Shown here: positions 1 to 27,191 of the stretch, one piece after another
Layout: each line of letters begins with the position of its first letter
Numbering within the stretch: the first letter of the stretch is position 1
Assembly (NCBI GenBank): GCA_048886185.1
Contig: JBHLKY010000022.1
Location: 21,864-53,863, forward strand
Direction: 5' to 3'
Length of the DNA stretch: 32,000 nt
DNA from: Candidatus Hermodarchaeota archaeon
Lineage (GTDB): Archaea > Asgardarchaeota > Heimdallarchaeia > Hodarchaeales > Hodarchaeaceae
Notes under the pieces: model-generated
The model's input: only the letters and a program-made list of their open reading frames with translations
Told to the model about the DNA's origin: nothing
Databases searched by the model: none
Made by a program: the position numbers and the translations under genes

Positions 1-881
1 ATCCTTATTCAATTTCAACCGAGTTTTTTAAGCGGATTGATTGGGTTATTGATCAATCACTATCTCGAAACCTTACTGTTATAATCAACATCCATCATTA
101 TGAAGATTTAATGAATGATCCTCATGTGCATAAATCTAGGTTTCTTTCAATTTGGCGTCAGATTTCGACCCGTTATCAGGATTATTCTGAAAATCTTTAT
201 TTTGAGTTACTTAATGAACCAACTTATAATCTTAACAGTTCTCTTTGGAATCAGTACCTTCAAGAAGCCATTGAAATAATCAGAAATACAAATCCAAATA
301 GAACTCTCATTGTTGGCCCAACAAACTGGAATAACTTATTTGATCTAGAATATCTTATACTCCCAGAGGATGATTCGAATATAATTGCTACATTTCATTA
401 TTACTCACCCTTTCTCTTTACTCATCAAGGGGCCGAATGGGTTCAGGGGAGCAATCAATGGCTTGGAACAAAATGGACTGGAACAGAATCTGAAAAAGAA
501 GCTATAAGATGGGATCTTAACACAGCTCTCCAATGGGCACAGGATCAAAATAAAACTTTGTTACTTGGTGAATTTGGGGCATATAATAAAGCAGAAATGG
601 AATCTCGTGTACGATGGACAAACTTTGTTGCAAGAGAAGCAGAAAAAAGACAAATAACATGGGCATACTGGGAATTCTGTGCAGGTTTCGGGATATACGA
701 TCAGGAAGAAAAAAAATGGAGACTGGAATTACTAGAGGCACTTGTACCAACTAGTCCAATTTTAACTCGTGTAACAACTTCCACTAACCATACCACAAGG
801 TATATGGAGAACTTTTTTTCAATTGTCACATTTGCTACTATTGCATTATTCTTCTATCGTTATCGACGTAGAAAAACATGA
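1..881 (+). CDS. GH5 endoglucanase/beta-glycanase (Thermotoga Cel5A-like), 5'-truncated by the window, with C-terminal Thr-rich linker and membrane anchor
   Basis: The frame is open from base 3 (PYSISTEFFKRIDWVIDQSLSRNLTVIINIHHYEDL), so the track's Met at 111 is internal. It has the acid/base NEP (213-221), HYYSPFLFTHQGAEW, the nucleophile GEFG (E at 570-572) and WAYWEFCAGFG, all closely matching T. maritima Cel5A as recalled. The C-terminus is TRVTTSTNHTT, then hydrophobic FFSIVTFATIALFF, then basic RYRRRKT. Confidence 0.92.
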   Translation, partial: PYSISTEFFKRIDWVIDQSLSRNLTVIINIHHYEDLMNDPHVHKSRFLSIWRQISTRYQDYSENLYFELLNEPTYNLNSSLWNQYLQEAIEIIRNTNPNRTLIVGPTNWNNLFDLEYLILPEDDSNIIATFHYYSPFLFTHQGAEWVQGSNQWLGTKWTGTESEKEAIRWDLNTALQWAQDQNKTLLLGEFGAYNKAEMESRVRWTNFVAREAEKRQITWAYWEFCAGFGIYDQEEKKWRLELLEALVPTSPILTRVTTSTNHTTRYMENFFSIVTFATIALFFYRYRRRKT

Positions 882-928
882 CAGTTTTGAATATGTAATT
901 AGAGAGATTTTACTAGAATTTCCAAAAC

Positions 929-2836
929 ATGGAGGCAAATATTATACTTGAAAAAAAAGATTTACTCTTTCCGAACCCTAAGCATCTAAAATTAGAGAAA
1001 GGATCTTTATCTCTATCAAAGGAATTATGGATCGTTCTCAACAGTCCATCGACAAAGATTCTTTCTCATGCCTGGTATTTGAAGAAAAAATTAACAGAGT
1101 TTGGTTATAATTCAAGAATTACTGCATCCAAATCGAATATGCCGAAATCTGATGTGGTTCCCATCACACTTTCAATTAATCAACCAGTGCTTGAAAAACC
1201 AGAAAGCTATACAATAATTATAAATCAAGAAGGGATCATTTTAACTGGGTACGATAGACCAGGCCTATTTTATGCGATTGTAACTTTTTTCCAAGTTATA
1301 GAGCTTTCAAATCAACAGGAATTATCTTGCTTAGAAATTAAAGATTGGCCTGACTTTCCATCTAGAGGAGTAATGTTAGATGTAAGTAGGGATAAGGTTC
1401 CCACCATGGAGACCCTATTTGAATTAACAGAATTACTAGCAAATCTTAAGATCAATCAATTACAACTATACTTAGAACATACTTTTGCTTATTCTGGGCA
1501 TAATGTAGTCTGGAAAGATGCAAGTCCTTTCACTGGAGAGGAAATATTAGCCTTAGATGAGTTTTGTAAGGAACGATATGTTGAATTAGTACCCAATCAA
1601 AATAGTTTTGGCCATTTTCATCGCTGGTTGATTCATGATCCTTATAGAGATCTTGCAGAATGTCCTGAAGGGACAGATCACCCGTTTAGTAAAGAAAAAG
1701 AACCATTTTCTTTAAACCCTATTGATTCACATGTAATTGAGTTACTGGAGGATCTATATGATCAGTTATTACCTCATTTTTCCAGTAACCACTTGAATGT
1801 TGGCCTTGATGAAACCTTTGATTTGGGAGAAGGCCAGTCGGCTGAAGTGTGCAAAGAAAAAGGAAAAGGAACTGTTTACTTAGAGTTTCTCCTTAAGATC
1901 TATGAATTAGTGAAAAAACGAGGAAAAACAATGCAATTTTGGGCTGATATAATTTTTGAACACCCAGAATTAATACCACAAATACCCAAGGATATCATTC
2001 CTTTAATATGGGGTTATGAAGCATCACATCCTTTTGATTTATTATCTGAGAAAATAAGTAATTTAGGTTTATCATATTATGTCTGTCCTGGAACTAGTAG
2101 CTGGAATAGCATCGCTGGGCGGACAGATAATGCAATAGCTAATTTGTATAACGCAGGGATCAATGGAGTGAAGAATAACGCGGGAGGTTACCTTATTACC
2201 GATTGGGGTGATCATGGTCATCTCCAACCATTACCTTTCAGCTATTTAGGATATCTTGTTGGGTCAGGAGTCGCGTGGAATGTCAAAAGCGCCGAAATGT
2301 TGGACAAAAAGTCATTTATTTCTCATTTACTTGATTTTCATATATTTCATGATAAAGGAGGAGTAATGGGAAAAGTTACTTGGGAATTAGGAAACGCTTA
2401 TACAAAAGTTGAATTCAATCCTCCCAATAATTCATCATTATTCTTGATTCTTATGTCTTCAATGAATAAGTATTCTGAGATGGTACTAGAAAATATTTCA
2501 ATTGAAAAACTACAAGAAGCATATACATTTATCGATGAGTCAATCAAGTTAATAGTCAATGCTGATATGAAAAGAAAAGATGCCCAATTGGTGGAACAAG
2601 AATTTCTTTGGGCTGCGAATATTTTGAAATTTGCTTGTGATCTTGGTATAGCTAGATTAAGAATCGGTATCAATGAACCTCTAAGTAAAATTCCTAATAA
2701 GAAGAAAAATGCGTTACAAACAACATTGGGAAAATTGATTGAGGAGCATCGAAACATTTGGTTACAAAGAAATCGTTCTGGAGGATTATCTGACTCAGCT
2801 AATCGACTTGAAGTGCTTTGGCACGAACTTAATTAG
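929..2836 (+). CDS. GH20 beta-N-acetylhexosaminidase (no signal peptide)
   Basis: GH20b-type N-domain (ESYTIII...GLFYAIVTFFQ), then IKDWPDFPSRGVMLDVSR, LVPNQNSFGHF and the catalytic Asp-Glu pair in NVGLDETF (1808-1813). Also has WADII, VCPGTSSW and TDWGD. Confidence 0.88.
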   Translation: MEANIILEKKDLLFPNPKHLKLEKGSLSLSKELWIVLNSPSTKILSHAWYLKKKLTEFGYNSRITASKSNMPKSDVVPITLSINQPVLEKPESYTIIINQEGIILTGYDRPGLFYAIVTFFQVIELSNQQELSCLEIKDWPDFPSRGVMLDVSRDKVPTMETLFELTELLANLKINQLQLYLEHTFAYSGHNVVWKDASPFTGEEILALDEFCKERYVELVPNQNSFGHFHRWLIHDPYRDLAECPEGTDHPFSKEKEPFSLNPIDSHVIELLEDLYDQLLPHFSSNHLNVGLDETFDLGEGQSAEVCKEKGKGTVYLEFLLKIYELVKKRGKTMQFWADIIFEHPELIPQIPKDIIPLIWGYEASHPFDLLSEKISNLGLSYYVCPGTSSWNSIAGRTDNAIANLYNAGINGVKNNAGGYLITDWGDHGHLQPLPFSYLGYLVGSGVAWNVKSAEMLDKKSFISHLLDFHIFHDKGGVMGKVTWELGNAYTKVEFNPPNNSSLFLILMSSMNKYSEMVLENISIEKLQEAYTFIDESIKLIVNADMKRKDAQLVEQEFLWAANILKFACDLGIARLRIGINEPLSKIPNKKKNALQTTLGKLIEEHRNIWLQRNRSGGLSDSANRLEVLWHELN

Positions 2837-2857
2837 GATCGAGGGGTTAAAATACAA

Positions 2858-3691
2858 TTAATAATATCCTAGTGCTCCTTTTTGTCGTGTACGATATTCA
2901 AAGTAATTGAAGACTAGAATTCCTAGAATCAACCACACTACGTTTAAAAACATTATATATATGAGAATTTCAAACCAATATGCACTAAATCCTTGGAGTA
3001 CTCCCTCACGGAATCCCTCAACACCCCAAGTTATTGGTGAGATGAAAGATAATGGTTTTAGAAGAGCAGGTAATACTGCTAATGGAAAAAAAGCCGGAGC
3101 TAATAAATTCATGAATCCATCCATGAAAAGGACAAACTTCCAAGCTTGTTTCATTGCAAGAACCAATCCAGATATGATTAGGGAAAATCCTAACAATGAA
3201 ATCGTAGCAAAAAACAAAATGAAAATCATGGGTAGAATATTGAGAACATTTATTTGTAATCCATATAGAAAATATACACCACCAATCTGCAAAAAAAATG
3301 CCAATACTGACATGGACAGACCAAAAAGTGTATTACCAAAAATTATTGAAAATCGGGAGGCAGGGGTCATATAAATGCTAACTAATGTTCCAGTCCATTC
3401 TTCCCGTCGAATACCCATTGCTCCCATCCAATAAATGCGTGTTAGAATAGCCATTGAAGCTGAACCGAAAGTTAAGAATAAGATAACATCACTTGTTGTT
3501 GCATACTTGGCTAGTATCTCACTTTCACGACCACCTACTAAGGCTTGTCCATAGATGATAACAGGAAGCAAGAAAATCAATGGTTCAGATACAAAGTAGA
3601 GAAAAGTTAATGGATATGCTAATCTGATTCTCCAATATTTAATCATAAGTTGCCAAGAGCAATTAAGCTCAAACCAAATGCGAGATATCAT
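2858..3691 (-). CDS. ABC-2 type transporter permease
   Basis: About 6 hydrophobic segments, an EEWTGTL motif (ABC-2 'E...GTLE') and FFPLAVLPALL...SPITW. It is third in a tightly packed minus-strand trio. Confidence 0.88.
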   Translation of the reverse strand: MISRIWFELNCSWQLMIKYWRIRLAYPLTFLYFVSEPLIFLLPVIIYGQALVGGRESEILAKYATTSDVILFLTFGSASMAILTRIYWMGAMGIRREEWTGTLVSIYMTPASRFSIIFGNTLFGLSMSVLAFFLQIGGVYFLYGLQINVLNILPMIFILFFATISLLGFSLIISGLVLAMKQAWKFVLFMDGFMNLLAPAFFPLAVLPALLKPLSFISPITWGVEGFREGVLQGFSAYWFEILIYIMFLNVVWLILGILVFNYFEYRTRQKGALGYY

Positions 3692-3693
3692 TG

Positions 3694-4521
3694 CTAATAG
3701 GCTCCTAATGATCCTTTTTCACGTGAGAATTCCTCCATCTTTGTAAAGAGAAGGACTCCAATCATCCACAACACAATATCTAGAATTACTAGGCTAATTA
3801 TAAAGATCATTGGTTCTAATGCGGGGTACATTATTGTTTCTGGCATTGTTAATTTCCTAATAACAGAAAGACCTAATGTAAAGGGAATTGTAAGAGAAAT
3901 TACTCGAATCCAGCCTGGCAGAGCTTGCAAACTGTACCGAACTGGTGTGATGAGATGCATCCCAGTTTCAATCATTTCAGTTAGTGTTCCTGGTTCTTTG
4001 AAGACTATAATTATACCTGCCATCAAAACACCAAATCCATACAAACCTACTATTGTGAGGATTAAGACACCAACAGATAAAATTAGTCCTTGCCAAAGTA
4101 GATGTATTTGTAGAAAGACACTTATAATGGTAAATTGAATCAAAATATTGATTGATGCCCATATTGTTTCCGAAATACTTGTACCAATTAGTATATCCAC
4201 ACGACTCGTGGGCGTTGTCCATAGTACTTCCAGTGTTCCAGATTCTTGTTCCCAACGAATGGCATTTCCTGCTCCCCATAAAGCTGTAGACACAAACATG
4301 AAGAGAATTGTCCCTACAACAATAAAGCTCAGAAAATCTTCACTTCCAGTAAGTTCTGCGAAGTTTTCACTAGTAGTTCCCCCAACAAATGCTATTCCTT
4401 GAAGTATGAGTGGTGTTACCCACATTACTGGCATAACTGCCCAAAACAGCAAGTCGAACTTGTATCGAGACATATGAATTATATTTTTATAGATAATGGC
4501 TTGAATTGTCGCAAGTTTCAT
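3694..4521 (-). CDS. ABC-2 type transporter permease (start revised from 4578 to ATG 4521)
   Basis: EQESGTLEVLWTTP motif and multiple TM segments. The ATG at 4521 follows the ATPase stop (4523-4525) by 1 nt and has GGAGG upstream. Confidence 0.88.
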   Translation of the reverse strand: MKLATIQAIIYKNIIHMSRYKFDLLFWAVMPVMWVTPLILQGIAFVGGTTSENFAELTGSEDFLSFIVVGTILFMFVSTALWGAGNAIRWEQESGTLEVLWTTPTSRVDILIGTSISETIWASINILIQFTIISVFLQIHLLWQGLILSVGVLILTIVGLYGFGVLMAGIIIVFKEPGTLTEMIETGMHLITPVRYSLQALPGWIRVISLTIPFTLGLSVIRKLTMPETIMYPALEPMIFIISLVILDIVLWMIGVLLFTKMEEFSREKGSLGAY

Positions 4522-4522
4522 T

Positions 4523-5527
4523 TCAAGTGTCCTCCTTGATATTTGATAATCCCCGTCCAGTGAGTTTAATGAAAGCATCTTCTAATGTAGGAGTTTCAAC
4601 ATCAATACTTTGTATCGAGACATTCTCTTCTTTCAATTTTTCTAAAACTGAGAGCATAATTTGTGAGCTGTCTTGTGTATGAATGTGAGTAAGATTGTTT
4701 TGTGTATAAACTTCAAGGATCCCAGGAATATCATGAAAGATTCTATTTGGAAATGAATCAGTTGTTTTAATTTTAATAACTTCGTGTTCTTTGATCTGTA
4801 ATTTAAGTTGTTCAGGAGTGGCGGTATCTATGATTACTCCGTTATCAATTAGAGCTACTCGATCAGATAACTGATCAGCTTCAGCCATATAATGAGTGGT
4901 TAACAGAATAGTTTTTCCCTCTTCCTTCTGTAGAATATTTTTTATGAATTGTCTCAAATCACGAGCAAAGGAAGGATCAAGGCCTAATGTTGGTTCATCG
5001 AAGAGTAATACTGGTGCATTTGATATTAAAGCTCTAGCAAAATTAATTTTCATTTTCATTCCAGTACTATATTTTTCAACGCGTTCATGAGCTTTATTTA
5101 GAAGTTGCATTTGTTTAAGTAAATGCCTTGCACGATCATGGGCTTCAGTTTTACTAAGGCCATACATACGTCCAAAAAATATCAGGTTTTCCAATCCAGT
5201 CATTTTCCAATAGGTACTCCGTTCACCACCACCAATAGTAGCCCCGAAACTAGCACGTGCTTTAGAACTTTCTTTTACAACATCGAAACCATTGATTTTT
5301 GCTATACCATGATCCGGAATAACAATTGTAGTTAGTATTTTCACTAAAGTAGTCTTACCAGCTCCATTAGGACCAAGTAAACCAAAAATTTCTCCTTTAC
5401 TGACACAGAGATCTACTTTATCGAGAGCTTGGACTATCTCTTTTTTCCGATTACGCTTAAAACGCGAGCCTCTTGTTTTCTCAAATCTTTTGCTTATTTT
5501 AGACACATAAATTGGAAAATTCTGCAT
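4523..5527 (-). CDS. ABC transporter ATP-binding protein (DrrA/ABC-2 family)
   Basis: Walker A GPNGAGKTT, signature YSTGMK, Walker B LLFDEPT, H-loop TTHYM and a C-terminal PTLEDAFIKLTG. Confidence 0.95.
   Translation of the reverse strand: MQNFPIYVSKISKRFEKTRGSRFKRNRKKEIVQALDKVDLCVSKGEIFGLLGPNGAGKTTLVKILTTIVIPDHGIAKINGFDVVKESSKARASFGATIGGGERSTYWKMTGLENLIFFGRMYGLSKTEAHDRARHLLKQMQLLNKAHERVEKYSTGMKMKINFARALISNAPVLLFDEPTLGLDPSFARDLRQFIKNILQKEEGKTILLTTHYMAEADQLSDRVALIDNGVIIDTATPEQLKLQIKEHEVIKIKTTDSFPNRIFHDIPGILEVYTQNNLTHIHTQDSSQIMLSVLEKLKEENVSIQSIDVETPTLEDAFIKLTGRGLSNIKEDT
4531..4535 (-). promoter_or_regulatory. Shine-Dalgarno site (GGAGG) for the permease start at 4521
   Basis: GGAGG lies 9 nt upstream of ATG 4521, inside the end of the ATPase gene. 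Confidence 0.65.
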
Positions 5528-15570: not shown

Positions 15571-16287
15571 TTACCATCCAAGGATTCTTTTTTCCTTATA
15601 AAATTCTCCTGTTTTTAAATTCCTCGCAGATTCTGTGGCTAGGAATATTGGAGTCTCAATTCCTTCTTTAATAGATAATGGCGCATTTGGTCCTCCTAGA
15701 TCTGTTCTTACCCATCCAGGATCAACTGAAAAAACCAGAATATTTGTATCCTTAAGTTCATTTGCTAAGTTTTTTGTTATGGCATTTATAGCAGTTTTTG
15801 AAATGCTATAAGCTGGATAATAATCCATTCTATTAACAGTCAATTGTCCCAATCCTGATGAAAAATTAATGATTCTTCCTGATTTGGATCTTCTTAGAAG
15901 AGGAATGAACTTTTGGCTCATTAAAAGAATCCCTCTGAAATTTATGTTCATAGTTCGTTCTAAAATCTCAAGTGGAAGGTTTTCAATCCTGGTTTCAGCA
16001 CTTTCAAGATTCACTGCTCCATTGTTGATTAGAACATCGATGTGATTTTGTTCTTCTGAAACCTCTTTGGCAAGCCTTTCAATATCCTCAACTTTTTCTA
16101 AGTCAGTAATTTTCAATTTAACTTTTAAGTTCTGATCTTTAAAGTCTTTTTCAGCCATAGAACCACTTTCCTCATTTCTACAAATCATATAAACAGTAGC
16201 TCCCATTTCAGCGAGTTTTCGTGTCATCGCTTTTCCCATACCTTTATTTGCACCAGTGATTAGAATGATTTTACCTTTGAGACTCAT
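15571..16287 (-). CDS. Short-chain dehydrogenase/reductase (carbonyl-reductase-like, probably NADPH)
   Basis: TGANKGMG glycine motif followed by a basic residue (ICR), then NNGA, catalytic Ser (FSSG), YSISK and DPGWVRTDLGG. Confidence 0.92.
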   Translation of the reverse strand: MSLKGKIILITGANKGMGKAMTRKLAEMGATVYMICRNEESGSMAEKDFKDQNLKVKLKITDLEKVEDIERLAKEVSEEQNHIDVLINNGAVNLESAETRIENLPLEILERTMNINFRGILLMSQKFIPLLRRSKSGRIINFSSGLGQLTVNRMDYYPAYSISKTAINAITKNLANELKDTNILVFSVDPGWVRTDLGGPNAPLSIKEGIETPIFLATESARNLKTGEFYKEKRILGW

Positions 16288-16494: not shown

Positions 16495-16502
16495 TTTTAG
16501 TA

Positions 16503-17865: not shown

Positions 17866-17870
17866 GGTGA
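17866..17870 (+). promoter_or_regulatory. Shine-Dalgarno site (GGTGA)
   Basis: Lies 5 nt upstream of ATG 17876. Confidence 0.55.
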
Positions 17871-17875
17871 AATTT

Positions 17876-18859
17876 ATGAAATACCGTCATGTAGGTAGCA
17901 CAGGTTTAAAAATAAGTGAGATAAGCTTAGGCTCATGGTTGACCTATGGAGGATCTCAAGATAAGGAAGCCAGTAGAGAAATTGTGGTTAAAGCCATAGA
18001 ACATGGTATAAACTTCATAGATATCGCAGATGTCTATAGTGGAGGGAATGCAGAAAAAGTAATTGGTGAAATAATTCAAGAAGAAAATTATAATAGAAAA
18101 GACCTTGTTATAAGCAGTAAAGCTTTTTGGCCAATGTCTAAGGGAGTCAATGATAAAGGTTTAAGTCGAAAACACATAATGGAGTCAATTGAAGGAACTT
18201 TAGATAGACTTAACACAGACTATTTAGACATTTATTTCTGTCACAGATTTGACAGATACACCCCTCTTGAAGAAACAATCCAAGCAATGTCGAATCTCGT
18301 TGATAGAGGAGTTATTCATTACTGGGGAACATCAGTATGGACTGCAGTACAGCTAGAAAGAGCTTATTGGATGGCAAAATCTCTTGGTTGTCATCCTCCA
18401 GTTGTGGAACAACCTCAATATCATATGTTGAATCGTTATATTGAAATACCTCAAGGTGTAATAGAGACCTGCAGACATAATGGGATGGGTATCGTGTGTT
18501 TTTCTCCTTTATGTCAGGGAGTTTTGACAGGAAAGTATAACGATGGGGTTCCATCAGAAAGTCGAGGAGCTTCAACAGATTGGCTTAAATGGGATTTAAA
18601 TCCCGAAAACATAGAGAAAGTAAAACAACTTCAACCTATTGCTGATTATTTAAATGTTCAAATGTCTCAATTAGCGCTTGCTTGGATTTTACGTCATGAA
18701 GAAATAAGTTGTGCAATCACAGGTGCTACTAAACCACAACATGTTGAATCTAATGTTCAAGCATCTGGATTAAAACTTGACAACAAGACTATAAACCAGA
18801 TAGAGGAGATTCTAAATAATAAACCAGAGATCCATGGACTTTATCATCCTCCTTGGTGA
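17876..18859 (+). CDS. Aldo/keto reductase (Kv-beta/YghZ-like; start revised to ATG 17876)
   Basis: MKYRHVGSTGLKISEISLG, catalytic tetrad D/Y (DIADVY), K (SSK) and H (CHRFD), and SPLCQGVLTGKY. GGTGA at 17866-17870 favours ATG 17876. Confidence 0.93.
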   Translation: MKYRHVGSTGLKISEISLGSWLTYGGSQDKEASREIVVKAIEHGINFIDIADVYSGGNAEKVIGEIIQEENYNRKDLVISSKAFWPMSKGVNDKGLSRKHIMESIEGTLDRLNTDYLDIYFCHRFDRYTPLEETIQAMSNLVDRGVIHYWGTSVWTAVQLERAYWMAKSLGCHPPVVEQPQYHMLNRYIEIPQGVIETCRHNGMGIVCFSPLCQGVLTGKYNDGVPSESRGASTDWLKWDLNPENIEKVKQLQPIADYLNVQMSQLALAWILRHEEISCAITGATKPQHVESNVQASGLKLDNKTINQIEEILNNKPEIHGLYHPPW

Positions 18860-18895: not shown

Positions 18896-21196
18896 TTACG
18901 AGGATTTATCCAGAGAAACTCCAGCCTGAGCTAATAAGGTCTTAACAAGATCTTCTGCTGACATTGGTAGGTCTTTTTCTGCATATCTGAAAATTCTTAT
19001 CAAAGGTTGGTCTATTGCCCACCTAAGAAGTTCTTCTCTTACCTTTTTTTCATCAATTTCTACATCTGGATTTTGCATTTTTACATGGCTTATTCGTTGA
19101 GCTATTATTTGGTCTATAATAGGTTTTCCTTTTAGATCATTGAGCCAATCACGCAATGTTGAATCCATATTTAATTTACTTGGTAATTTCTGCGTCGATT
19201 CTAATATCACATTAGTGTGCAATCGAATATCTCTTGAAGAAGCGCCAATTAAAATCTCATACTCTCCATTTTCCCATACCCATGATTTGTAAATAACATT
19301 ATAATAGGCAAAAGAACGAGAATCTAAGTGAAAAGTTATTGTCTTTGTTTCATCAGGTTGTAATTCAACTTTACTAAATCCCTTCAGTTCCTTATTTGGC
19401 CGATCAATTTCAGGATTCGATTGGGATACATATAACTGCACTATCTCTTTCCCTACAACTTTTCCTGTATTAGTTATATCAACATTAACATCAACACCCT
19501 CTATATCTTTAAATGATTTACTTGAAACCCTCAAATTTGAGTAAGAAAATGTTGTATAACTTAATCCGTGCCCAAAAGGGAATATCGGTTCAATTGCCTT
19601 TTTATCATAATACCTATAACCAACATAAAGACCCTCTCCATATCTTACTTTTCCAGCCTCTCCAGGATAATTAATATAAGCAGGATTATGCTCTAATCTT
19701 TCTGGGAAAGTTTCAGCCAATTTTCCAGAAGGATTTACCTTATCAAACAGTACATCAGCAATAGCTCCTCCTCCTGCTTGGCCGAGTAAATATGCTTCAA
19801 TAACTGCTGGAACATCGTTAATCCATTCTTTCAAACTAATAACAGAACCATTATTCAAAACAACTATAGTTTTAGGATTTGAATTTGTTACGGCTTTTAT
19901 TAGTTCAACATGACTTTCAGGTATGTTTATAGTTTTTCGATCATACCCCTCCGATTCATACTCAAAGGGTAAACCTGAAAAAATTATGGCAATATCAGAT
20001 TGTCTGGCTAGGTCACAAGCTTCATCGATTAAGGCTTTATTTATACCTTCTTTTGCATAACCATCAGAATATCTGAGAAGAATCCTATCCCCTACTATCC
20101 TTTGGATTTCATCAAAAGAATTATCAACTTTAACAGGATTAATTAAGGAACTACCTCCACCTTGGAATCGAGGTTCTTTTGCCATATATCCAATGATAGC
20201 AACTGAAGAAGCTTCTGTGATTGGTAAAACATTATTTTGGTTTTTGAGTAAAATTATGCCTTCTGCTGCAACCTTACGAGCAAAATCATGATGCTTTTCC
20301 TTATCGAATTCAATATGTCCCTTTTTTGTTTCTTTTGCTTTAAAAATAATCCTTAAAATTCGTTCAACAGCCTGATCCAAGTTTTTTTCATCAAGATCAT
20401 TATTTTTAACAGCCTCAACAACCCTTTGGACATCTAGATCGTTTGGACCCGGCATTTGAAGATCTAATCCTCCTTTGAGTGCAGCAACACGGTTGTGGAC
20501 TGCTCCCCAATCGGAAACAATAAATCCCTCCAAACTCCATTCGGATTTCATTATTGTGGTTAAAAGATCATAATGTTCTGAGGCATATATCCCATTTATT
20601 TTGTTATAAGCACACATAACAGTCCAAGGATGTGATTCTTTCACTGTTTTTTCAAAAGCTGGTAAATAAATCTCTCTTAATGAGCGTTCATCAATTTCTG
20701 CACTAATCATGAATCTTTGATATTCTTGATTATTTGCAGTATAATGTTTTAACGAGGTTCCCACACCTTTGCTTTGAACACCCTTTACAAAAGCCATACC
20801 CATTTCTCCAGCTAGAAAAGGATCTTCAGAGTAATATTCGAAATTTCGGCCACAAAGAGGTGTTCTCTTAATGTTGACACCCGGTCCCAATAATATATCT
20901 ACGTCTAAGGAAATACATTCATCTCCTAGATATTCACCAACTTTTTGAACTAATTCCGTGTTCCATGAAGATGCTAAAGCCACAGCAGGAGGAAAACACG
21001 TCGCTGGAAAACTTTTAGCATCACCAAACTCTTGGATATTTTGAACTTTTCTTACTCCATGAGGCCCATCGCTCATTGTAATCTTAGGAATGCCTAATCG
21101 TTGCACATCAATTGTTTGCCAAGGGCCAGAGCCTGTACAGAAAGCTGCTTTTTCTTCCAGTGTTAATTGTGATAATAAAGATTTTATATCAACCAA
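18896..21196 (-). CDS. GH3 beta-glucosidase (clostridial/Thermotoga BglB-like) with Fn3-like C-terminal domain
   Basis: MSDGPHGVRK, GPGVNIKRTPLCGRNFEYYSEDP, KHYTAN, the nucleophile in SDWGA, ESEGYDR, GEGLYVGYRYY, PFGHGLSYT and ELKGF. TTG start with GGTGA upstream. Confidence 0.95.
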   Translation of the reverse strand: MVDIKSLLSQLTLEEKAAFCTGSGPWQTIDVQRLGIPKITMSDGPHGVRKVQNIQEFGDAKSFPATCFPPAVALASSWNTELVQKVGEYLGDECISLDVDILLGPGVNIKRTPLCGRNFEYYSEDPFLAGEMGMAFVKGVQSKGVGTSLKHYTANNQEYQRFMISAEIDERSLREIYLPAFEKTVKESHPWTVMCAYNKINGIYASEHYDLLTTIMKSEWSLEGFIVSDWGAVHNRVAALKGGLDLQMPGPNDLDVQRVVEAVKNNDLDEKNLDQAVERILRIIFKAKETKKGHIEFDKEKHHDFARKVAAEGIILLKNQNNVLPITEASSVAIIGYMAKEPRFQGGGSSLINPVKVDNSFDEIQRIVGDRILLRYSDGYAKEGINKALIDEACDLARQSDIAIIFSGLPFEYESEGYDRKTINIPESHVELIKAVTNSNPKTIVVLNNGSVISLKEWINDVPAVIEAYLLGQAGGGAIADVLFDKVNPSGKLAETFPERLEHNPAYINYPGEAGKVRYGEGLYVGYRYYDKKAIEPIFPFGHGLSYTTFSYSNLRVSSKSFKDIEGVDVNVDITNTGKVVGKEIVQLYVSQSNPEIDRPNKELKGFSKVELQPDETKTITFHLDSRSFAYYNVIYKSWVWENGEYEILIGASSRDIRLHTNVILESTQKLPSKLNMDSTLRDWLNDLKGKPIIDQIIAQRISHVKMQNPDVEIDEKKVREELLRWAIDQPLIRIFRYAEKDLPMSAEDLVKTLLAQAGVSLDKSS

Positions 21197-21202
21197 ATAG
21201 AT

Positions 21203-21207: not shown

Positions 21208-21327
21208 ATTTGAAATACAAAAGAATAATACTATTTTAACCTGATTAATATGATTTGAGAGAGAAACCTCACTTAATCTAAGAACATCATTATTAAATTT
21301 AAACAATTAGGAGTGGGATGTGAAATA

Positions 21328-22323
21328 ATGATTGGAACTAAAATATATGACTTTCAAGGAGATCTTCAGGAGTTATTCAAAGAATGGCTTTCTCTAAACT
21401 TTGATACCATTTTTGTAAGTAGATCTTTGTATTCCAATCACAAATTTAGAAAACTGGTGCAAAATAACAAAATGAATGCATTTATTATATTTCCTGTTTT
21501 TTATGATCCTAAAACTCTTGAGAATAATCCTGAATTGTACTCTATAACAGATAAAGGGGAGAAAGCGATAGATGAATGGATAAAATTCGTATGTCCATCC
21601 CGAGATGATTACAGGAGATATAAAATAGAGGAAATCAAAAAAGAAGTCATGACACTAAACCCTGATGGATTAAGTCTAGATTTCATTCGATATTTTGTGT
21701 TTTGGGAAAAAATTTACCCAGGGAGAACAATGGATTCTATACCTAACTGTTGTTTCTGCTCTCATTGTATAGAGAAATTCCAAAAAGATACTCAAGTTTC
21801 ACTGCCAAAGGAAATCACGGACAATCAGAAAAAAGCAGAAATCATCCAAAACAATCTCTCTAATGAATGGACAAAGTGGAAATGCAACATTATTTTCAGC
21901 TTCATAAAAGAAATCACCGAAGAGGTAAAGAAATTAAAACCAGAAATCTTGATTAATGTGCATGTTATTCCTTGGAGGAAAGAAGACTTCAACGGTGCAA
22001 TTGAAAAGATAGCAGGCCAAAATCTTAAAGAGATTGCAAAAATCGTTGATATGATTTCTCCAATGTGCTATTCCCACATGCTAAAAAGACAACCATCTTG
22101 GATAAACTCAGTAGTGAAAGACATGTATGAACAGACCAAACACAAGATCATACCAAGTATACAAGTAGAAAAATGTTATTTAAAAACTGAGATTTCAACA
22201 GAAGAGTTTAGTGACATGATTACGGAAGCATTAAAGGATCCTTCAAGTGGTATTGTTTTTTGGTCATGGGAGAAAATTCAAGGCAATATAGAAAAAAAAC
22301 AACTCCTGAAAGCAAAAATATAA
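21328..22323 (+). CDS. Putative glycoside hydrolase, GHL10-like TIM barrel (start probably ATG 21328)
   Basis: FVCPS...DGLSLDFIRY resembles the GHL10 motif LCP...DGIHLDYIRY. Also has CFCSHCIEKF, GQN...VDMISPMCY. No signal peptide. Divergent from the GH3. Confidence 0.6.
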   Translation: MIGTKIYDFQGDLQELFKEWLSLNFDTIFVSRSLYSNHKFRKLVQNNKMNAFIIFPVFYDPKTLENNPELYSITDKGEKAIDEWIKFVCPSRDDYRRYKIEEIKKEVMTLNPDGLSLDFIRYFVFWEKIYPGRTMDSIPNCCFCSHCIEKFQKDTQVSLPKEITDNQKKAEIIQNNLSNEWTKWKCNIIFSFIKEITEEVKKLKPEILINVHVIPWRKEDFNGAIEKIAGQNLKEIAKIVDMISPMCYSHMLKRQPSWINSVVKDMYEQTKHKIIPSIQVEKCYLKTEISTEEFSDMITEALKDPSSGIVFWSWEKIQGNIEKKQLLKAKI

Positions 22324-22450: not shown

Positions 22451-23488
22451 ATGTTTTCATTAAATGTTGAAACAGCCTTAACCAGGATAAAAGAATTAAA
22501 AATGACTGTTCTACCAGATTTTTACCTCGATATTATAGTAGATCCCCGAATGTCTTATGATCAATTAATAAAAGGTATCGGAACTGTGTATTCAAGGGGA
22601 GGAGGTAATCTTCTAGGACCAGAAACCCAATTCATCGCAGGTGGGAATGGAGGAAATGTTGCTAAAACATTAGGTGGTTTAGGTGTTCCAACGTTCTTCT
22701 TATGTGAAACATCACCCCTCGGTAAGCAGCTTGTTGAATTTTTCTTACATCCACTAGGAGTTAAGACACTGATCACCGCCTCTGGAGATATAGCTACTTC
22801 AATTATTCTAGAAATCCCCCATGGTTCAAACAAACATAATGTTATGCTTTGTTCCTCAGGAAGTGTGGCAGATTTTTCTTCTAAGAGATTAACACCTGAC
22901 CAGTGGAATGTCCTTAAAGAGAGTCATGTTATTGCTATATGCAATGCACAAAACTACCAAATGGAAGATCTTGTAGAGGCAATCCTTCGAGAAGTTCCAA
23001 CTTCTACTGTAGTATCAGTTGATTTTTCAGACTTGACACCACATCTTCAACGGATTGATGGGTTTAGGAAACGAATTCTAGAGCATCCAACGAGACCCCC
23101 ATCATTTATCACTGGAAATGAAATTGAATTTCGATTGTTAGCAAAGAAACCCAATCAGTCACCAGAGGAAGCCACACAAATATTATCCTCTACATATCCA
23201 GACATCATGTTTGGATTACATATGTCTAATAAGGCAGAAATATGGAAAGGTGGTAAACAATTATCCATAGAACCATGTTTTAAGGTTTTCGTCCTAAAAG
23301 CAACTGGGGCTGGAGATAATTGGCATGCTGGTTTTCTAACAGGATGGCAATTAGGACTAACTATTTCAGAAGCAACAATTTTTGCGAATGCAGTCGCAGG
23401 TTATCAAATATCAACTGGAAAGATTGGCTCATTGAAGGATATCATCAGTTTTACAGCATCTACACCATGTCAGGATTTAATAATCTGA
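22451..23488 (+). CDS. PfkB/ribokinase-family carbohydrate kinase
   Basis: GGNGGNVAKTLGGLG (PfkB signature 1-like), ATGAGDNWHAGF (anion hole and catalytic Asp) and GNEIE. Confidence 0.88.
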   Translation: MFSLNVETALTRIKELKMTVLPDFYLDIIVDPRMSYDQLIKGIGTVYSRGGGNLLGPETQFIAGGNGGNVAKTLGGLGVPTFFLCETSPLGKQLVEFFLHPLGVKTLITASGDIATSIILEIPHGSNKHNVMLCSSGSVADFSSKRLTPDQWNVLKESHVIAICNAQNYQMEDLVEAILREVPTSTVVSVDFSDLTPHLQRIDGFRKRILEHPTRPPSFITGNEIEFRLLAKKPNQSPEEATQILSSTYPDIMFGLHMSNKAEIWKGGKQLSIEPCFKVFVLKATGAGDNWHAGFLTGWQLGLTISEATIFANAVAGYQISTGKIGSLKDIISFTASTPCQDLII

Positions 23489-23569: not shown

Positions 23570-24676
23570 ATGTCACAAAATGGGAATACTATATTGATTG
23601 TAGGCACTGGTACTATTGGAGAACCGTTAACAGGCCTATTATCAGCTTTATCAAAAAATTTAGGAATTGATGAGTTAATCTTCTACAAACACACACCAAG
23701 GTTAACAGATCGTCCTATGATACGGGGATTACTTAAAAAGGGGGCTCATATGTGCTGTCAAATAGAGAAATTTAACATGTTTCGGGAATTGGGAGTTGAA
23801 CCAACGTATACTTTTGAAGATGCCCTAGCTAAGGCAACTGTTGTCATTGATTGCTCAACTGAAGGAATGGGTGTTCGAAATCGTCTTTTGTTTTATGAAA
23901 ATGCAAAAGACAAAGTCCGTGCATTCTTAGGCCAAGGATCAGAACACGGGTTTGGTATTCCTTATGGTGTTGGACTCAATGATAGTATCCTACACAGAAA
24001 AAATTCCCAGTTTCTCCAAATCGTTAGTTGTAACACTCATGCAGCATCAAGGGTACTCAAGGATTTGGCATTTGATGAAGAAGGTAAGAGTATTTTAAGC
24101 GAAGGACGATTTGTTTTCATGAGAAGAGCTACTGATGTCTCACAAGAAGGCAAATTCATTGCAGGGCCATCTGTTGGGAAACATAAGGATCAGACTTTCG
24201 GAACCCATCATGCAAAAGATGTTTATCGCTTATATTCAACTTTAGGTCATCATCTCAATGTGTTTTCTAGTTCGATTAAACTTAACACCCAGTATATGCA
24301 TACATCATTTTTTAATCTAGTATTAGATAAAAAGAAAGCACTTTCGTTGGAGGAGGTTATTCAAAAGTTTTCGGATGATCCTTATGTAGCTGTAACTAAT
24401 AAAACAGATGCAAATGTGATTTTTTCCTTTGGAAGGGAGTATGGTCACTTCGGGAGAATCCTTAACCAAATTGTTGTAGTACTTCCCAGTCTAATGGTTC
24501 GTCAAAGTGAGCTTTTCACAGACAAAATAGAAATTGTAGGTTATGCCTATACCCCCCAAGATGGAAATTCACTCTTAAGCTCAACATCCGCAACAGCATT
24601 CTTTTTGGATCCCGATAATATTACATTAGGTGAGCCACTTCCTTGCCTTAAACCATACATGTTCTCCGAGGTTTAA
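23570..24676 (+). CDS. Divergent class II (archaeal-type) glyceraldehyde-3-phosphate dehydrogenase-like protein
   Basis: Rossmann motif IVGTGTIG, VVIDCS, catalytic SCNT, RRATD, HHAKDV (catalytic His motif as in Sulfolobus GAPDH) and YMH. Confidence 0.75.
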   Translation: MSQNGNTILIVGTGTIGEPLTGLLSALSKNLGIDELIFYKHTPRLTDRPMIRGLLKKGAHMCCQIEKFNMFRELGVEPTYTFEDALAKATVVIDCSTEGMGVRNRLLFYENAKDKVRAFLGQGSEHGFGIPYGVGLNDSILHRKNSQFLQIVSCNTHAASRVLKDLAFDEEGKSILSEGRFVFMRRATDVSQEGKFIAGPSVGKHKDQTFGTHHAKDVYRLYSTLGHHLNVFSSSIKLNTQYMHTSFFNLVLDKKKALSLEEVIQKFSDDPYVAVTNKTDANVIFSFGREYGHFGRILNQIVVVLPSLMVRQSELFTDKIEIVGYAYTPQDGNSLLSSTSATAFFLDPDNITLGEPLPCLKPYMFSEV

Positions 24677-24794
24677 GAGAAACACCTTTCTATCTTTATC
24701 AGTGTTGAAATATATCCTGAATAACTTGGATTCACAATCTTCTACAAAGGCTTTTTTAAAGTTAATTACCTTTGAGTTGAATAGAGGTATTAAA

Positions 24795-27191
24795 ATGGAT
24801 ATTCCTACTTGTTGTTGGACTAGACCAATCAGTTTTGAATTGCGTGATTCACCAAAACCCAGTGGATTGTCCCTCGCCGTTTTACGATCTATCCCTCTGA
24901 AAACAATTTTTAAATTATGGAAATTGTCACGTAAAGCCAAACAAGAAGGGAAAGAAACGTTCTCTTTCTCCCCAATGAAAGATGGCTATTATCAAGGCAT
25001 TTCAATTGGAGGAATGGGTGCTGGTACTATAGGCAGAAGTTATAGAGGTGATTTTATTCGCTGGCAGCTCTATCCTGGAAAAAGACGTTATCAGACACTT
25101 TATGCTAATCAATTCTCGATCTTCATTCGTAATTCACAAAAAACATTTTCAAATGTTCTCTTTCCTAACCAACCTGAAAGAAATCAATTAGCAGCATGGA
25201 AGTGGAAACTCTCGAGCAACATTGGAACGTATTATGCCCTCTATCCAAGGGCATGGACGAAGTATGAAAGGTTCCCTAACTTTCCAAATGTGTCTTTAAT
25301 CTGTTCTCAGATCACTCCAATGATTCCCCATAACTATAAGGATAGTAGTTTACCTTGTGGTTTATTTAATTGGGAGATAGAAAACAAAGAAAAGGATCCG
25401 ATACAAATAAGTCTACTGCTTACATGGCAAAATGGTGATGGCTCCGAGAATGACCTAAAAGGTAGCCATTTTAATTCTTATAAAAAGTATGAGACCATAG
25501 AAGGAGTTCTTATGACATATAATCTCCCCGCAGATCAGAATGGACCAGCAAGCTTTTTCATTGGTACCCAAGCAGATTCAAATGTTTCCATAACTTATCA
25601 TTCAACATTTGATAGTTCTGGTGATGGAAGTGACATCTGGGAGAAATTTAGTCAGAATGGTAGACTTCAAAACCTTGATAATAGTACTCCCTCAAATAAA
25701 GGCAAATCAATAGCTGGCGCAATCTGTGTATCAGCAAAACTAAAGCCTGGAGAACAAATACACATTCCATTCGTTGTGTCATGGGATATTCCCATTATGA
25801 CCTTTGGGGAAGGCCGTCAATGGTATAAGAGATATACAAAATACTTTGGTACAGATGGAAAGAATGCAGTTAATATAGCGAAATATGCCTTAGAAAGAAG
25901 ACTTGAATGGAATAAAAAGATAGAAGAGTGGCAGAATTCAATAATTAACAATGATATAATACCTCTTTGGATAAAAACAGCCCTCTTTAATGAATTGTAT
26001 TATCTTGCTGATGGATTAACGGCATGGGAACATGGAGAGGTTGGGAGGAGACCACAACCAGATTCTTATAATGGCCATTGGGCTTATTTAGAATGTCCTG
26101 ACTATCCAATGTACAATACGTATGATGTCCATTTCTATAGCTCCTTTGCTTTAGCTATCTTATTTCCAGAGATTCAGAAGTCAATCACCCGAGATTTCGC
26201 CCAAGCTGTTTTAACCGAGAACACTGAATCGCTTACTATGCTTTTTGATGGAAAAAAAGTATCCCGAAAACCTTTAGGAGTTGTCCCCCACGATCTCGGA
26301 TTGCCTTCAGAAGATCCTTGGATTAAGGTAAATAGCTATTCTATGCATGATATTGCAAAATGGAAGGATTTGAATTCTAAATTTGTGTTACAGGTATACA
26401 GAGACTCATTACTTGATGATGATCGACTTTCTTTCATTCAATCTAATTGGCCAGCCGTAGTAATGGCAATAGAACATCTTGAACAATTCGATAAGGATGG
26501 AAATGGATTAATCGAAAATGGAGGATTTGCTGACCAGACATATGATGTTTGGAAATTGAAGGGGGTTTCGGCATATTGTGGTGGTCTTTGGATTACTGCA
26601 TTGGCCGCAGCAATTAAAATGGCTGAGACGATTGGAGATGAAGAAAGATATAATCAATACAAAGAAACATTTAATAAGGCAAAATTAAATTTTGATAAAA
26701 TTTTATGGAATGGGGATTATTATAAGTTAGATACTCAAAGAAAAAATACCCAAGTAATCATGTCAGATCAATTATGTGGCCAGTGGTGGGCGAGAGCTTG
26801 TGATCTTGAAGAAGCGTTACTCCCAGACGATAATGTTAAGAAAGCGCTTGGAACCATTCATAAATATAATGTCAGGACTTTTGGGGAAGAAAAACTCGGT
26901 GCCGTGAATGGAATGCTTTTTTCAGGAAAAATTGATAAGAGAGGCCTGCAATCTCAAGAAGTATGGTCAGGAACTACCTATGGACTAGCAGCATTAATGC
27001 TGCATGAACATTTAGATGAGATGGCCTTTTCCACAGCTTATGGAGCCTATCATATGACATATGAAAGGGGTTTTTGGTTTAGAACACCAGAAGCATGGAA
27101 TAAGGATGGTCGCTATCGAGCATCGCAATATATGCGACCTTTAGCTATATGGGCTATATGTTGGGCCCTAAAACACCGATCCAAAAGTTAG
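24795..27191 (+). CDS. GH116 beta-glucosidase / non-lysosomal glucosylceramidase (GBA2)-like (start revised to ATG 24795)
   Basis: GISIGGMGAGTIGR, the nucleophile in YLECPDY (E at 26091), NTYDVHFYSSFAL, VPHDLG, WKDLNSKFVLQVYRD, the acid/base in DQTYD (D at 26544), SAYCGGLW, DQLCGQW, EVWSGTTY, FRTPEAW and YMRPLAIW. The track's start (24630) overlaps the upstream gene. Confidence 0.93.
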   Translation: MDIPTCCWTRPISFELRDSPKPSGLSLAVLRSIPLKTIFKLWKLSRKAKQEGKETFSFSPMKDGYYQGISIGGMGAGTIGRSYRGDFIRWQLYPGKRRYQTLYANQFSIFIRNSQKTFSNVLFPNQPERNQLAAWKWKLSSNIGTYYALYPRAWTKYERFPNFPNVSLICSQITPMIPHNYKDSSLPCGLFNWEIENKEKDPIQISLLLTWQNGDGSENDLKGSHFNSYKKYETIEGVLMTYNLPADQNGPASFFIGTQADSNVSITYHSTFDSSGDGSDIWEKFSQNGRLQNLDNSTPSNKGKSIAGAICVSAKLKPGEQIHIPFVVSWDIPIMTFGEGRQWYKRYTKYFGTDGKNAVNIAKYALERRLEWNKKIEEWQNSIINNDIIPLWIKTALFNELYYLADGLTAWEHGEVGRRPQPDSYNGHWAYLECPDYPMYNTYDVHFYSSFALAILFPEIQKSITRDFAQAVLTENTESLTMLFDGKKVSRKPLGVVPHDLGLPSEDPWIKVNSYSMHDIAKWKDLNSKFVLQVYRDSLLDDDRLSFIQSNWPAVVMAIEHLEQFDKDGNGLIENGGFADQTYDVWKLKGVSAYCGGLWITALAAAIKMAETIGDEERYNQYKETFNKAKLNFDKILWNGDYYKLDTQRKNTQVIMSDQLCGQWWARACDLEEALLPDDNVKKALGTIHKYNVRTFGEEKLGAVNGMLFSGKIDKRGLQSQEVWSGTTYGLAALMLHEHLDEMAFSTAYGAYHMTYERGFWFRTPEAWNKDGRYRASQYMRPLAIWAICWALKHRSKS

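Follow-up and report, generated by a model that had tools for sequence, protein, structure and literature searches.

In bacteria, genes for family 161 glycoside hydrolases (GH161) cluster with genes for GH1, GH3 and GH30 beta-glucosidases, ABC transporters and GH94 enzymes (Kuhaudomlarp et al., 2019, PMC6484121). The Paenibacillus polymyxa enzyme PapP phosphorolyses beta-1,3-gluco-oligosaccharides with a degree of polymerization (DP) of at least 3 to alpha-glucose 1-phosphate (Glc-1-P) (PMC6484121). Curdlan-degrading haloarchaea, which grow on curdlan, pachyman and laminarin, combine GH81, GH161 and GH3 (Sorokin et al., 2022, PMC9726719). Among Asgard archaea, endoglucanase, beta-glucosidase and GH94 genes were inferred in Lokiarchaeia (Bulzu et al., bioRxiv 10.1101/385732) and GH94 transcripts of a Lokiarchaeon were detected in sediment (Orsi et al., bioRxiv 10.1101/826495). 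Here a stretch of 32,000 nucleotides from a Candidatus Hermodarchaeota archaeon (assembly GCA_048886185.1, contig JBHLKY010000022.1, positions 21,864 to 53,863; hereafter the window) was analyzed. It carries a GH161 gene surrounded by further genes of glycan metabolism, and these are likely to form part of a real accessory island, made of two modules, with which an Asgard archaeon breaks down beta-linked glucans and gluco-oligosaccharides.

The island resembles the bacterial GH161 clusters (PapP of P. polymyxa, GH161 with GH94 in Acholeplasma laidlawii, and GH94-GH161 tandems) in joining GH161 to GH3, GH94 and an ABC importer with its binding protein, and in the route proposed for them, from oligosaccharide to disaccharide to glucose and Glc-1-P. 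GH161 loci of Anaerolineae encode GH94 and GH3 proteins that are 65-68% and 55-56% identical to those of the island. Unlike the bacterial clusters, the island has an Asgard host, an Opp/Dpp-type importer whose binding protein is anchored at its C terminus, and a GH161 gene flanked by a HAD phosphatase, an FtsX-OppD fusion and a protein of 245 residues (unk245); in congeners, GH161 and the GH94/importer module are moreover separate loci. With the haloarchaea it shares an archaeal GH161, which was thus already on record, a GH3 and an endo-beta-1,3-glucanase. It differs from them in phylum, in GH17-like and GH5 endo-enzymes where they have GH81, and in that the Asgard genus is uncultured. The Lokiarchaeia reports, in contrast, list genes with no conserved locus architecture and no mention of GH161, and the class of the present host is not that of the GH94-rich Asgard families. 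The architecture matches known bacterial GH161 clusters and the biochemistry is conventional; no mention of GH161 in Asgard archaea, or of this locus architecture, was found in the literature searched.

As in the SusC/SusD-based polysaccharide utilization loci (PULs) of Bacteroidota, a surface endo-enzyme, uptake and intracellular exo-enzymes are encoded together. Unlike those loci, the island has no SusC/SusD pair and its host no outer membrane: among open reading frames (ORFs) of at least 100 aa on the contig, no Pfam family of TonB receptors, SusD, hybrid two-component regulators or extracytoplasmic function (ECF) regulators was matched. Membership in the Bacteroidota type of PUL was rejected for lack of SusC/SusD on the contig. 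A preliminary description of the window, made from its letters and ORFs, had called the locus PUL-like. With neither SusC/SusD nor a regulator found, that term holds only loosely, for a gene cluster with several carbohydrate-active enzymes (CAZymes) and a transporter, as in a dbCAN CAZyme gene cluster or a Gram-positive PUL.

Clustering and synteny

The window corresponds to C22:21864-53863 on the 75.3-kb contig (C22) of the host genome (G000); window coordinates are used unless C22 is stated. Window genes were taken from six-frame ORFs and assigned by Pfam, NCBIfam and PDB sequence searches, and C22 ORFs of at least 100 aa were scanned with Pfam. Anchoring and cellular location were called from a hydropathy scan of the sequences. 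Synteny was assessed by tblastn of all C22 proteins against the 50 kb on either side of the GH161 gene in four congeners (G010, G003, G008 and G015).

Within ∼49 kb of C22, 1% of the genome, lie both GH3 genes of the genome, both GH116 genes, the single GH161 gene, two of the three GH94 genes and two of the four GH5 genes. In all, 12 GH-family genes (13 with a GHL-type protein) and an Opp-type importer are found there. The probability that two GH3, two GH116 and one GH161 gene share one such segment was estimated by us at ∼1e-8, assuming independent uniform placement, and the CAZyme clustering is not due to chance. The enzymes named in the preliminary description of positions 1-27191 were each recovered at their place by the Pfam, NCBIfam and PDB searches. 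That description had treated them as one 27-kb locus. The clustering was upheld; the single unit was not, as the island extends over about 49 kb and comprises two modules and several transcription units. It had also left unmentioned the interleaved genes outside the CAZymes, which are the ABC-2 genes, the FtsX-ABC fusion, MBL, SDR, AKR and unk245.

The two modules are adjacent in the host and separate loci in congeners. Locus A runs from the start of C22 to window position 2836 and lies mostly upstream of the window. Locus B, the genus-restricted block around GH161, runs from the ABC-2 genes to PfkB (2858-23488), so that the two abut at 2836/2858. In both G010 and G003, locus B is kept at 70-89% amino acid identity in the order ABC-2 (three genes)-FtsX fusion-HAD-GH161-unk245-MBL-SDR-GH5b-AKR-GH3b-GHL, and the G010 block ends with PfkB in addition. 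In G008, whose GH161 is 59% identical, GH161-unk245-SDR-GH5b-GH3b stand together and the remaining genes lie 10-20 kb off. In G015 (GH161 57%), GH20-GH161-HAD-FtsX fusion is kept, with GH5b, GH17-like and the PfkB-GAPDH-like pair nearby. Two congeners thus have the whole block in the same order and two others keep part of it, and its genes are not scattered among relatives, in keeping with the locus first proposed.

Locus A of G010, a single contig of 4.9 Mb, was found at 4.258-4.281 Mb in the order GH20-GH17-like-GH94b-LVIVD-Opp (five genes)-GH3a-GH94a-GH116a, ∼570 kb from its own locus B at 3.70 Mb. G008 has the same order, extended by DeoC-GH5a, on a contig other than that of GH161. From these layouts the first two genes of the window, GH5a and GH20, belong to locus A. 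Four samples of a single study, which probably supplied the genome, gave contigs assembled per sequencing run (Logan) that each span positions 1-5377 or more and so bridge the junction of the two loci. Among the congeners, GH94a was present in all four that carry GH161 and in one of 17 others, a descriptive count since kin are not independent.

Synteny also bears on how many of these genes take part. It is possible, if rather doubtful, that only a small core works as a unit (GH161 with GH5b and GH3b and, separately, GH94a/b with the Opp importer), the other window genes (ABC-2, FtsX fusion, HAD, MBL, SDR, AKR, GHL, PfkB, GAPDH-like, GH116b and GH20) being unrelated neighbours kept by recent ancestry. 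On that view, a surface-to-glycolysis system of 27 kb would read too much into the locus. GH5b is near GH161 in five of the five genomes and is the sole partner of which this is true; GH3b is near it in four. The ABC-2 genes, 80-89% identical and in the same position in G010 and G003, are displaced in G008 and have no close orthologue within 50 kb either side in G015 (34% at best). PfkB is missing near GH161 in G003 and G008, GH116b has no congener orthologue, and the GAPDH-like gene is not glycolytic. None of HAD, MBL, the ABC-2 permeases, PfkB, the GHL protein, the FtsX-OppD fusion or unk245 was found in the 79 bacterial GH161 loci compared; for HAD, absence extends to 80 loci, the 79 bacterial ones and the G008 record (tblastn, E ≤ 1e-8). 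The adjacency of FtsX fusion, HAD and GH161, on the other hand, persists in G015 despite a GH161 identity of only 57%, unk245 comes after GH161 in four genomes, and the ATPase of the fusion is a close paralogue of a locus A importer ATPase. So small a core would still be compatible with a two-module catabolic island, from which it differs just in the number of participating genes.

Host genome and origin of the contig

The host assembly comprises 75 contigs and 4.84 Mb, with an estimated completeness of 96% and contamination of 4.96%. Across the window the GC content is 31-37% and no tRNA genes were found; no archaeal or bacterial small-subunit rRNA gene was found in the assembly. The genome encodes L31e, a eukaryote-type actin (442 bits, Pfam Actin) and two Snf7/ESCRT-III genes. 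On C22 itself, downstream of the window, lie genes for a gelsolin-repeat protein, PAC2, CDC48 and SerRS, and the tetranucleotide profile of C22 correlates with the genome mean at 0.993. The closest GH161 record is a Promethearchaeota metagenome-assembled genome (MAG) rated a congener of the host, and two further MAG assemblies at NCBI encode an identical GH161 protein. The host, which comes from sediment, belongs to the Asgard archaea (Promethearchaeota) and C22 is of Asgard origin; archaeal ribosomal and eukaryotic signature proteins occur in the genome, and the latter on the contig as well. The Asgard affiliation first proposed is therefore supported at phylum level. As a separate observation, the gelsolin-repeat gene is followed by a gene for an MFS_2 sugar transporter of the glycoside-pentoside-hexuronide type; the two together occupy C22:66001-68755, ∼12 kb past the window end.

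That the CAZymes are neighbours by chance, or that the contig is bacterial and was mis-binned or is a chimera, is extremely improbable. It is true that the CAZymes are of bacterial type, that outside the Asgard archaea GH161, GH94a and GH3a/b have their nearest homologues in bacteria (54-68% identity), and that the estimated bin contamination is the value given above. Against this, gelsolin, PAC2 and CDC48 are encoded on C22 and its composition matches the genome; orthologous loci occur in the single-contig congener and in three further congeners, the same GH161 protein recurs in two other MAGs, and the per-run contigs bridge the A/B junction. Clustering by copy number is, for its part, far beyond chance. 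Both explanations were rejected on the Asgard marker genes of C22, its composition, the congener loci and the clustering.

Identity, distribution and relatives of GH161

Scores of the GH161 protein were 839 bits with the solved GH161 9qqk (residues 9-1072) and 837 bits with 9h8v, compared with 72 bits for the GH149 structure 6hq6 and 126 bits for NCBIfam GH149 (cut-off 1150). The match to GH161 extends over the full length and sets the protein apart from GH149 and GH94. Among 79 bacterial homologues, 138 columns show a conservation of 97% or more; the protein keeps 136 of these, both changes being F/Y swaps, and the motif WYDALNG stands at residue 653; at these conservation-defined invariant positions too the protein is a GH161. 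With these columns and the nucleophile motifs of the GH3 enzymes kept, the enzymes look active, and GH161 is predicted to be a beta-1,3-glucan phosphorylase.

GH161 was found in six of 400 Asgard genomes, five of them in the host genus. Within the class sample it is present in 4 of 21 congeners and in none of 19 other genomes. The sixth copy, from a genome (G083) that shares the class of the host but not its family, is 43-44% identical and split over two short contigs (C9:324-2330 and C360:14-1090); either bin contamination or an independent acquisition could account for it.

When 185,579 species genomes were searched, the best 80 relatives of GH161 were one congener MAG (G008) and 79 bacteria. 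The bacterial sequences came from Defluviitalea phaphyphila (54% identity), Chloroflexota/Anaerolineae (42-50%), Paenibacillus (42-46%), Omnitrophota, Planctomycetota and others; no haloarchaeal GH161 was among the best 80. A quick maximum-likelihood tree of 84 rows (LG+G4) was calculated. The five Asgard sequences formed one clade (SH-aLRT 100), part of a polytomy that also holds one clade of Bacillota and one of Chloroflexota; further bacterial phyla fell on the far side. A single acquisition from bacteria would be the parsimonious reading of this tree, its direction being unproven because the tree is unrooted and holds no eukaryotic or haloarchaeal sequences.

Surface enzymes, importer and GH94 enzymes of locus A

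Locus A supplies the surface enzymes and the importer. GH5a, its penultimate gene, scored 185 bits to Pfam Cellulase and 398 bits to Thermotoga maritima Cel5A (3amc), and the motifs of both catalytic glutamates are kept (NEP at 168, GEFG at 286), which confirms it as Cel5A-type. It has a signal-like hydrophobic segment at its N terminus, just outside the window, and a C-terminal transmembrane segment followed by an RRRKT tail. The first description of this GH5 as membrane-anchored was therefore right, in contrast to the soluble Cel5A of T. maritima, and its GH161 and Cel5A-type assignments were likewise sound. An N-terminal hydrophobic segment and a C-terminal transmembrane segment with a basic tail were also found in SBP5, the GH17-like protein and LVIVDa. 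LVIVDb has the same C-terminal anchor and an N terminus hidden by a run of N. Ahead of the anchor, a Ser/Thr/Pro-rich stretch is present in SBP5, the GH17-like protein, LVIVDb and GH5a. This shared terminal architecture suggests that all five are anchored at the cell surface. The two propellers are anchored paralogues that face each other around the GH94b-GH17-like pair, with the N run near the 5' end of LVIVDb.

An import step was part of the scheme first proposed for positions 1-27191. No binding-protein importer is encoded there: of the ABC systems in the window, one is an ABC-2 exporter type and the other a fusion of MacB/FtsX type. In the 21.8 kb upstream of the window lie the genes of the Opp-type importer, together with GH94a, GH94b, GH3a, GH116a and the GH17-like gene.

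GH94a is a predicted cellobiose phosphorylase, with full-length similarity to the Clostridium thermocellum enzyme (3qde, 1135 bits) versus 516 bits to the chitobiose phosphorylase 1v7v. GH94b scored 736 bits to the C. thermocellum cellobiose phosphorylase versus 580 to the chitobiose phosphorylase, so its disaccharide is ambiguous. The GH17-like protein scored 61 bits to a GH17 beta-1,3-glucanosyltransferase. The divergent GH20 had weak PDB matches (at most 52 bits) and no hydrophobic N terminus, and was read as cytoplasmic. Its orthologues lie beside the GH17-like gene at the end of locus A in G010 (71%) and beside GH161 in G015 (54%).

Elsewhere in the host genome, a third GH94-like gene with a 1420-aa frame (C20:81647-84811, 38% identical to GH94a) is directly followed by a phosphoglucomutase/phosphomannomutase (PGM/PMM) domain gene with a 718-aa frame, a second phosphorylase-mutase pair.

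A search of 400 Asgard genomes found GH94a in 47, from 14 of 85 genera; in the host class it turned up in no more than five species, all of the host genus. All eight genomes inspected from three families (f18, f20 and f31) have GH94a, five Opp genes and GH94b together, in varying order, and this cassette is probably what the Lokiarchaeia studies saw gene by gene. In a GH94 tree of 30 rows the Asgard GH94b-type sequences formed one clade (100) and the GH94a-type sequences of f1, f18 and f20 another (99). The latter stands next to the Anaerolineae GH94 sequences, 65-68% identical, that adjoin GH161 in those bacteria.

Proposed pathway

At the surface, the GH17-like protein (a beta-1,3-glucanase or transglycosylase) and GH5a would cut beta-1,3-, beta-1,4- or mixed-linkage glucans. 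More speculatively, binding or presentation of the substrate may fall to the LVIVD propellers. Oligosaccharides would then be imported by the anchored SBP5 and the Opp-type ABC system. Peptide-family (Opp/Dpp) ABC transporters import beta-gluco-oligosaccharides in Thermococcales and Thermotoga; the system predicted here is like theirs in using a peptide-family binding protein and oligo_HPY ATPases for sugar oligomers.

In the cytoplasm, GH161 would trim imported beta-1,3 chains to laminaribiose with release of alpha-Glc-1-P. GH94a would phosphorolyse cellobiose and GH94b another disaccharide, while GH3a/b, GH5b and GH116a/b would hydrolyse the remaining short products. GH161, GH5b, GH3b and the other scanned window GHs apart from GH5a have no hydrophobic N terminus, as had been described from the absence of signal peptides. 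The phosphorylase and exo-glycosidases of the window, which were the cytoplasmic enzymes covered by the scan, also lacked the C-terminal anchor and the Ser/Thr/Pro-rich stretch of the surface proteins. Five PGM/PMM genes lie elsewhere in the host genome, and the product of one of them would lead Glc-1-P into glycolysis. The overall logic first proposed, surface endo-cleavage followed by import and by cytoplasmic phosphorolysis and hydrolysis, fits the gene set. From it we infer the substrates (laminarin-type, cellulose-derived or mixed-linkage glucans), the catabolic direction of the phosphorylases, the accessory genes that take part and their co-regulation.

The enzyme set first described as leading to glycolysis included the GAPDH-like protein of the window. 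This protein scored 80.6 bits against a cut-off of 185 (NF003251) and 64 against 233 (TIGR01546), and the canonical type II glyceraldehyde-3-phosphate dehydrogenase (GAPDH) of the genome, the housekeeping copy, was located on contig C2 with 394 bits. The gene is therefore no evidence for such a link.

Several observations weigh against the proposed catabolic island. Its genes are divided between the two strands and make up at least seven transcription units, and no transcription regulator family was recognised by Pfam among C22 ORFs of at least 100 aa. A shared operator motif was not found above shuffled sequences (10-mers with one mismatch in 18 intergenic regions: maximum four regions, the same in shuffles). 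Public sequencing runs that match the locus are DNA only, mainly from one sediment study besides two that match a small share of it, with no RNA run among them. The ∼570 kb between loci A and B in G010 mean that physical linkage is not required. Half of locus B (the ABC-2 genes, FtsX fusion, MBL, SDR, AKR, PfkB and unk245) has no obvious place in the pathway and may be passengers kept through the close kinship of the congeners, and GH116b, GH20 and the GAPDH-like gene are not kept in most congeners. A HAD phosphatase acting on Glc-1-P would waste the energy that phosphorolysis saves. Sequence leaves the substrates of GH94b, GH5b, GH20, GH116a/b and the GHL protein unassigned, and phosphorylases are reversible.

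Another proposal, which we hold to be quite improbable, is that the phosphorylases serve the cell's own glycans, either in glycolipid or N-glycan turnover (GH116, GH20, GHL) or in the synthesis and mobilisation of an intracellular or exported beta-glucan, GH161 and GH94 then working in the direction of synthesis and the ABC-2 or FtsX systems exporting the product. Both GH161 and GH94 can run in either direction, PapP builds chains to DP14 in vitro, and GH161 was first identified in a heterokont alga, most eukaryotic members being from heterokonts (PMC6484121). The transporters of locus B are of exporter type and have no binding protein of their own; GH20, GH116 and the GHL protein, which resembles PgaB, are not typical enzymes of glucan foraging; and heavily glycosylated giant surface proteins adjoin the island. 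Set against this, the co-occurring locus A encodes endo-enzymes anchored at the surface together with a binding-protein importer, C22 showed no genes for glycosyltransferases or nucleotide sugars, and the bacterial and haloarchaeal precedents are catabolic (PMC6484121, PMC9726719). The trait is furthermore accessory, being present in 4-5 of 21 congeners, and so suits a niche substrate better than a core cell-envelope function. Catabolism of external beta-glucans remains the preferred explanation.

Remaining genes of locus B and the right flank

Coordinates of all features are listed in Table 1. The ABC-2 genes are of exporter type and form the left end of locus B. The FtsX-OppD fusion has ∼12 hydrophobic segments, a MacB periplasmic core domain and a C-terminal OppD-type ATPase. 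Its residues 875-1200 are 76% identical to the free importer ATPase of locus A (C22:12233-13222), and the fusion therefore looks like a duplicated importer ATPase joined to an exporter-type permease. It lies beside HAD-GH161 in G010, G003 and G015. HAD belongs to a sugar-phosphate phosphatase family and is directly upstream of GH161; it adjoins GH161 in G010 and G003 (70%) and has a partial match in G015. Orthologues of unk245 (65-73%) follow GH161 in G010, G003 and G008, and within the genus the protein is always encoded downstream of GH161. It had no Pfam, NCBIfam or Atlas match, and an AF2 model from a four-sequence alignment reached a pLDDT of 43.

The best PDB match of GH5b was 9ku5 ('putative beta-xylosidase GE32', 213 bits), followed by CelC and GH5 exo-beta-1,3-glucanases; nothing useful was found in the literature on 9ku5. 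GH5b has orthologues of 62-78% in G010, G003, G008 and G015. It is probably a cytoplasmic beta-glycosidase acting as an exo-enzyme or on oligosaccharides. AKR has orthologues of 85-86% in place in G010 and G003. GH3b carries the nucleophile motif GFIVSDW, and that of GH3a is likewise kept. GH3b orthologues are 77-83% identical in G010, G003 and G008, and the protein is 56% identical to the GH3 beside GH161 in Chloroflexota MAGs. The TIM-barrel protein had been called GHL10-like: the GHL type stands, but the match to GHL10 is weak, the best matches being DUF4015 and GHL13. It resembles the C-terminal domain of PgaB (a weak NCBIfam PgaB match) and has orthologues of 67-73% in G010, G003 and G008. 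For PfkB, every NCBIfam equivalog score was far under its cut-off; the gene is in place in G010 (76%) and beside the GAPDH-like gene in G015.

Table 1. Genes of loci A and B and of the right flank (window coordinates unless C22 is stated)
Feature	Coordinates	Strand	Remarks
GH116a	C22:303-2732	-	locus A
GH94a	C22:2753-5197	-	locus A
GH3a	C22:5398-7575	+	locus A
SBP5 (SBP_bac_5, 727 aa)	C22:7851-10034	+	Opp/Dpp-type binding protein
Two importer permeases	C22:10281-12228	+	Opp-type
Two importer ATPases with oligo_HPY tails	C22:12233-14034	+	Opp-type
LVIVDa propeller	C22:14080-15225	+	locus A
GH94b	C22:15292-17658	-	locus A
GH17-like	C22:17716-19419	-	locus A
LVIVDb propeller	C22:19610-20788	-	locus A
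DeoC-type aldolase	C22:20822-21544	+	locus A
GH5a, Cel5A-type endoglucanase, 389 aa	1-881 (C22:21575-22744)	+	starts 288 nt before window
GH20, divergent	929-2836	+	Pfam GH20 catalytic and domain 2, 57 bits each
ABC-2 permeases	2858-3691, 3694-4578	-	Pfam ABC2_membrane
DrrA-like ATPase of ABC-2	4523-5527	-	Pfam ABC_tran, DrrA1-3_C
FtsX-OppD fusion, 1204 aa	5976-9590	+	Pfam FtsX (two), MacB_PCD, ABC_tran, oligo_HPY
HAD, Cof-type HAD-IIB	9654-10463	+	Pfam Hydrolase_3, 102 bits; NCBIfam Cof-subfamily
GH161, 1084 aa, cytoplasmic	10516-13770	+	solved GH161 9qqk
unk245, 245 aa	13872-14609	+	no family match
MBL-fold hydrolase	14632-15474	-	Pfam Lactamase_B, 85 bits; syntenic in G010, G003
SDR	15571-16287	-	Pfam adh_short, 149 bits; syntenic in G010, G003, G008
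GH5b	16503-17837	+	Pfam Cellulase, 106 bits; no hydrophobic N terminus
AKR	17867-18859	+	Pfam Aldo_ket_red, 240 bits; 29 nt after GH5b
GH3b, three-domain beta-glucosidase, cytoplasmic	18896-21196	-	Pfam GH3 N and C, Fn3-like
GHL-type TIM-barrel protein	21313-22323	+	Pfam DUF4015 36, GHL13 30, GHL10 19 bits
PfkB-family sugar kinase	22451-23488	+	Pfam PfkB, 73 bits
Type-II-GAPDH-like dehydrogenase	23570-24676	+	divergent paralogue
GH116b, beta-glucosidase family, cytoplasmic	24792-27191	+	Pfam GH116 N 334 bits, catalytic 493 bits
Giant surface protein, 2975 aa, signal-bearing	27526-32000, on to C22:58316	+	right boundary of island

To the right of locus B lies the GAPDH-like gene. Aligned to 1cf2, its product retains the SCNT cysteine and the HH motifs, and it falls among unnamed GAPDH-II-like clusters of the Atlas. 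By its scores it lies outside type II GAPDH, and it is an active-looking paralogue of the glycolytic enzyme, to judge by the motifs kept. Among the relatives it was found only in G015, paired with PfkB there as here (G015:C1 ∼2,950,800-2,951,900). The two copies are 86% identical, in contrast to 63% for PfkB, 57% for GH161 and 62% for GH5b, which suggests strong constraint on, or recent exchange of, that gene.

The GH116b frame is open from a GTG at 24630, where it would overlap the end of the GAPDH-like gene by 47 nt, and the Pfam N-domain begins at residue 124. The start is uncertain, the ATG at 24792 being more likely than the GTG. No GH116b orthologue was found in the congeners; the best matches, at 45%, were to GH116a orthologues and to a genome of another family. 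After the giant surface protein, a second giant ORF of 2063 aa follows at C22:58711-64902, and both have signal-like N termini and late hydrophobic segments. Neither had a significant Pfam or carbohydrate-binding domain match, nor a homologue near the glycan loci of congeners, and the ORFs after 27526 were not counted in the pathway.

Implications for Asgard carbohydrate metabolism

Real, conserved and clearly of Asgard origin, the island is also functionally coherent and is an example of modular, partly inter-domain assembly of carbohydrate metabolism. As a metabolic trait it is sound and fairly ordinary, with bacterial and haloarchaeal precedents. Part of the saccharolytic capacity of Asgard archaea is modular and accessory, the GH94/Opp cassette occurring across several families and the GH161 block being almost confined to one genus. 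A further proposal, which we regard as rather unlikely, is that some species of the genus are beta-glucan specialists, built from the Asgard-wide GH94/Opp cassette, a bacterial GH161 module and lineage-specific parts (the FtsX/MacB-OppD fusion as a new glycan transporter or sensor, HAD and unk245). If true, laminarin or cello-oligosaccharides would enrich selectively for these archaea, which are closely related to eukaryotes.

For an uncultured Asgard genus, the gene set yields a testable prediction of carbon sources, laminarin-type and cellulose-derived beta-gluco-oligosaccharides, which may guide enrichment and stable-isotope work. The nesting of the GH161 block among bacterial sequences bears on how much bacterial metabolism entered an archaeal lineage related to eukaryotes.

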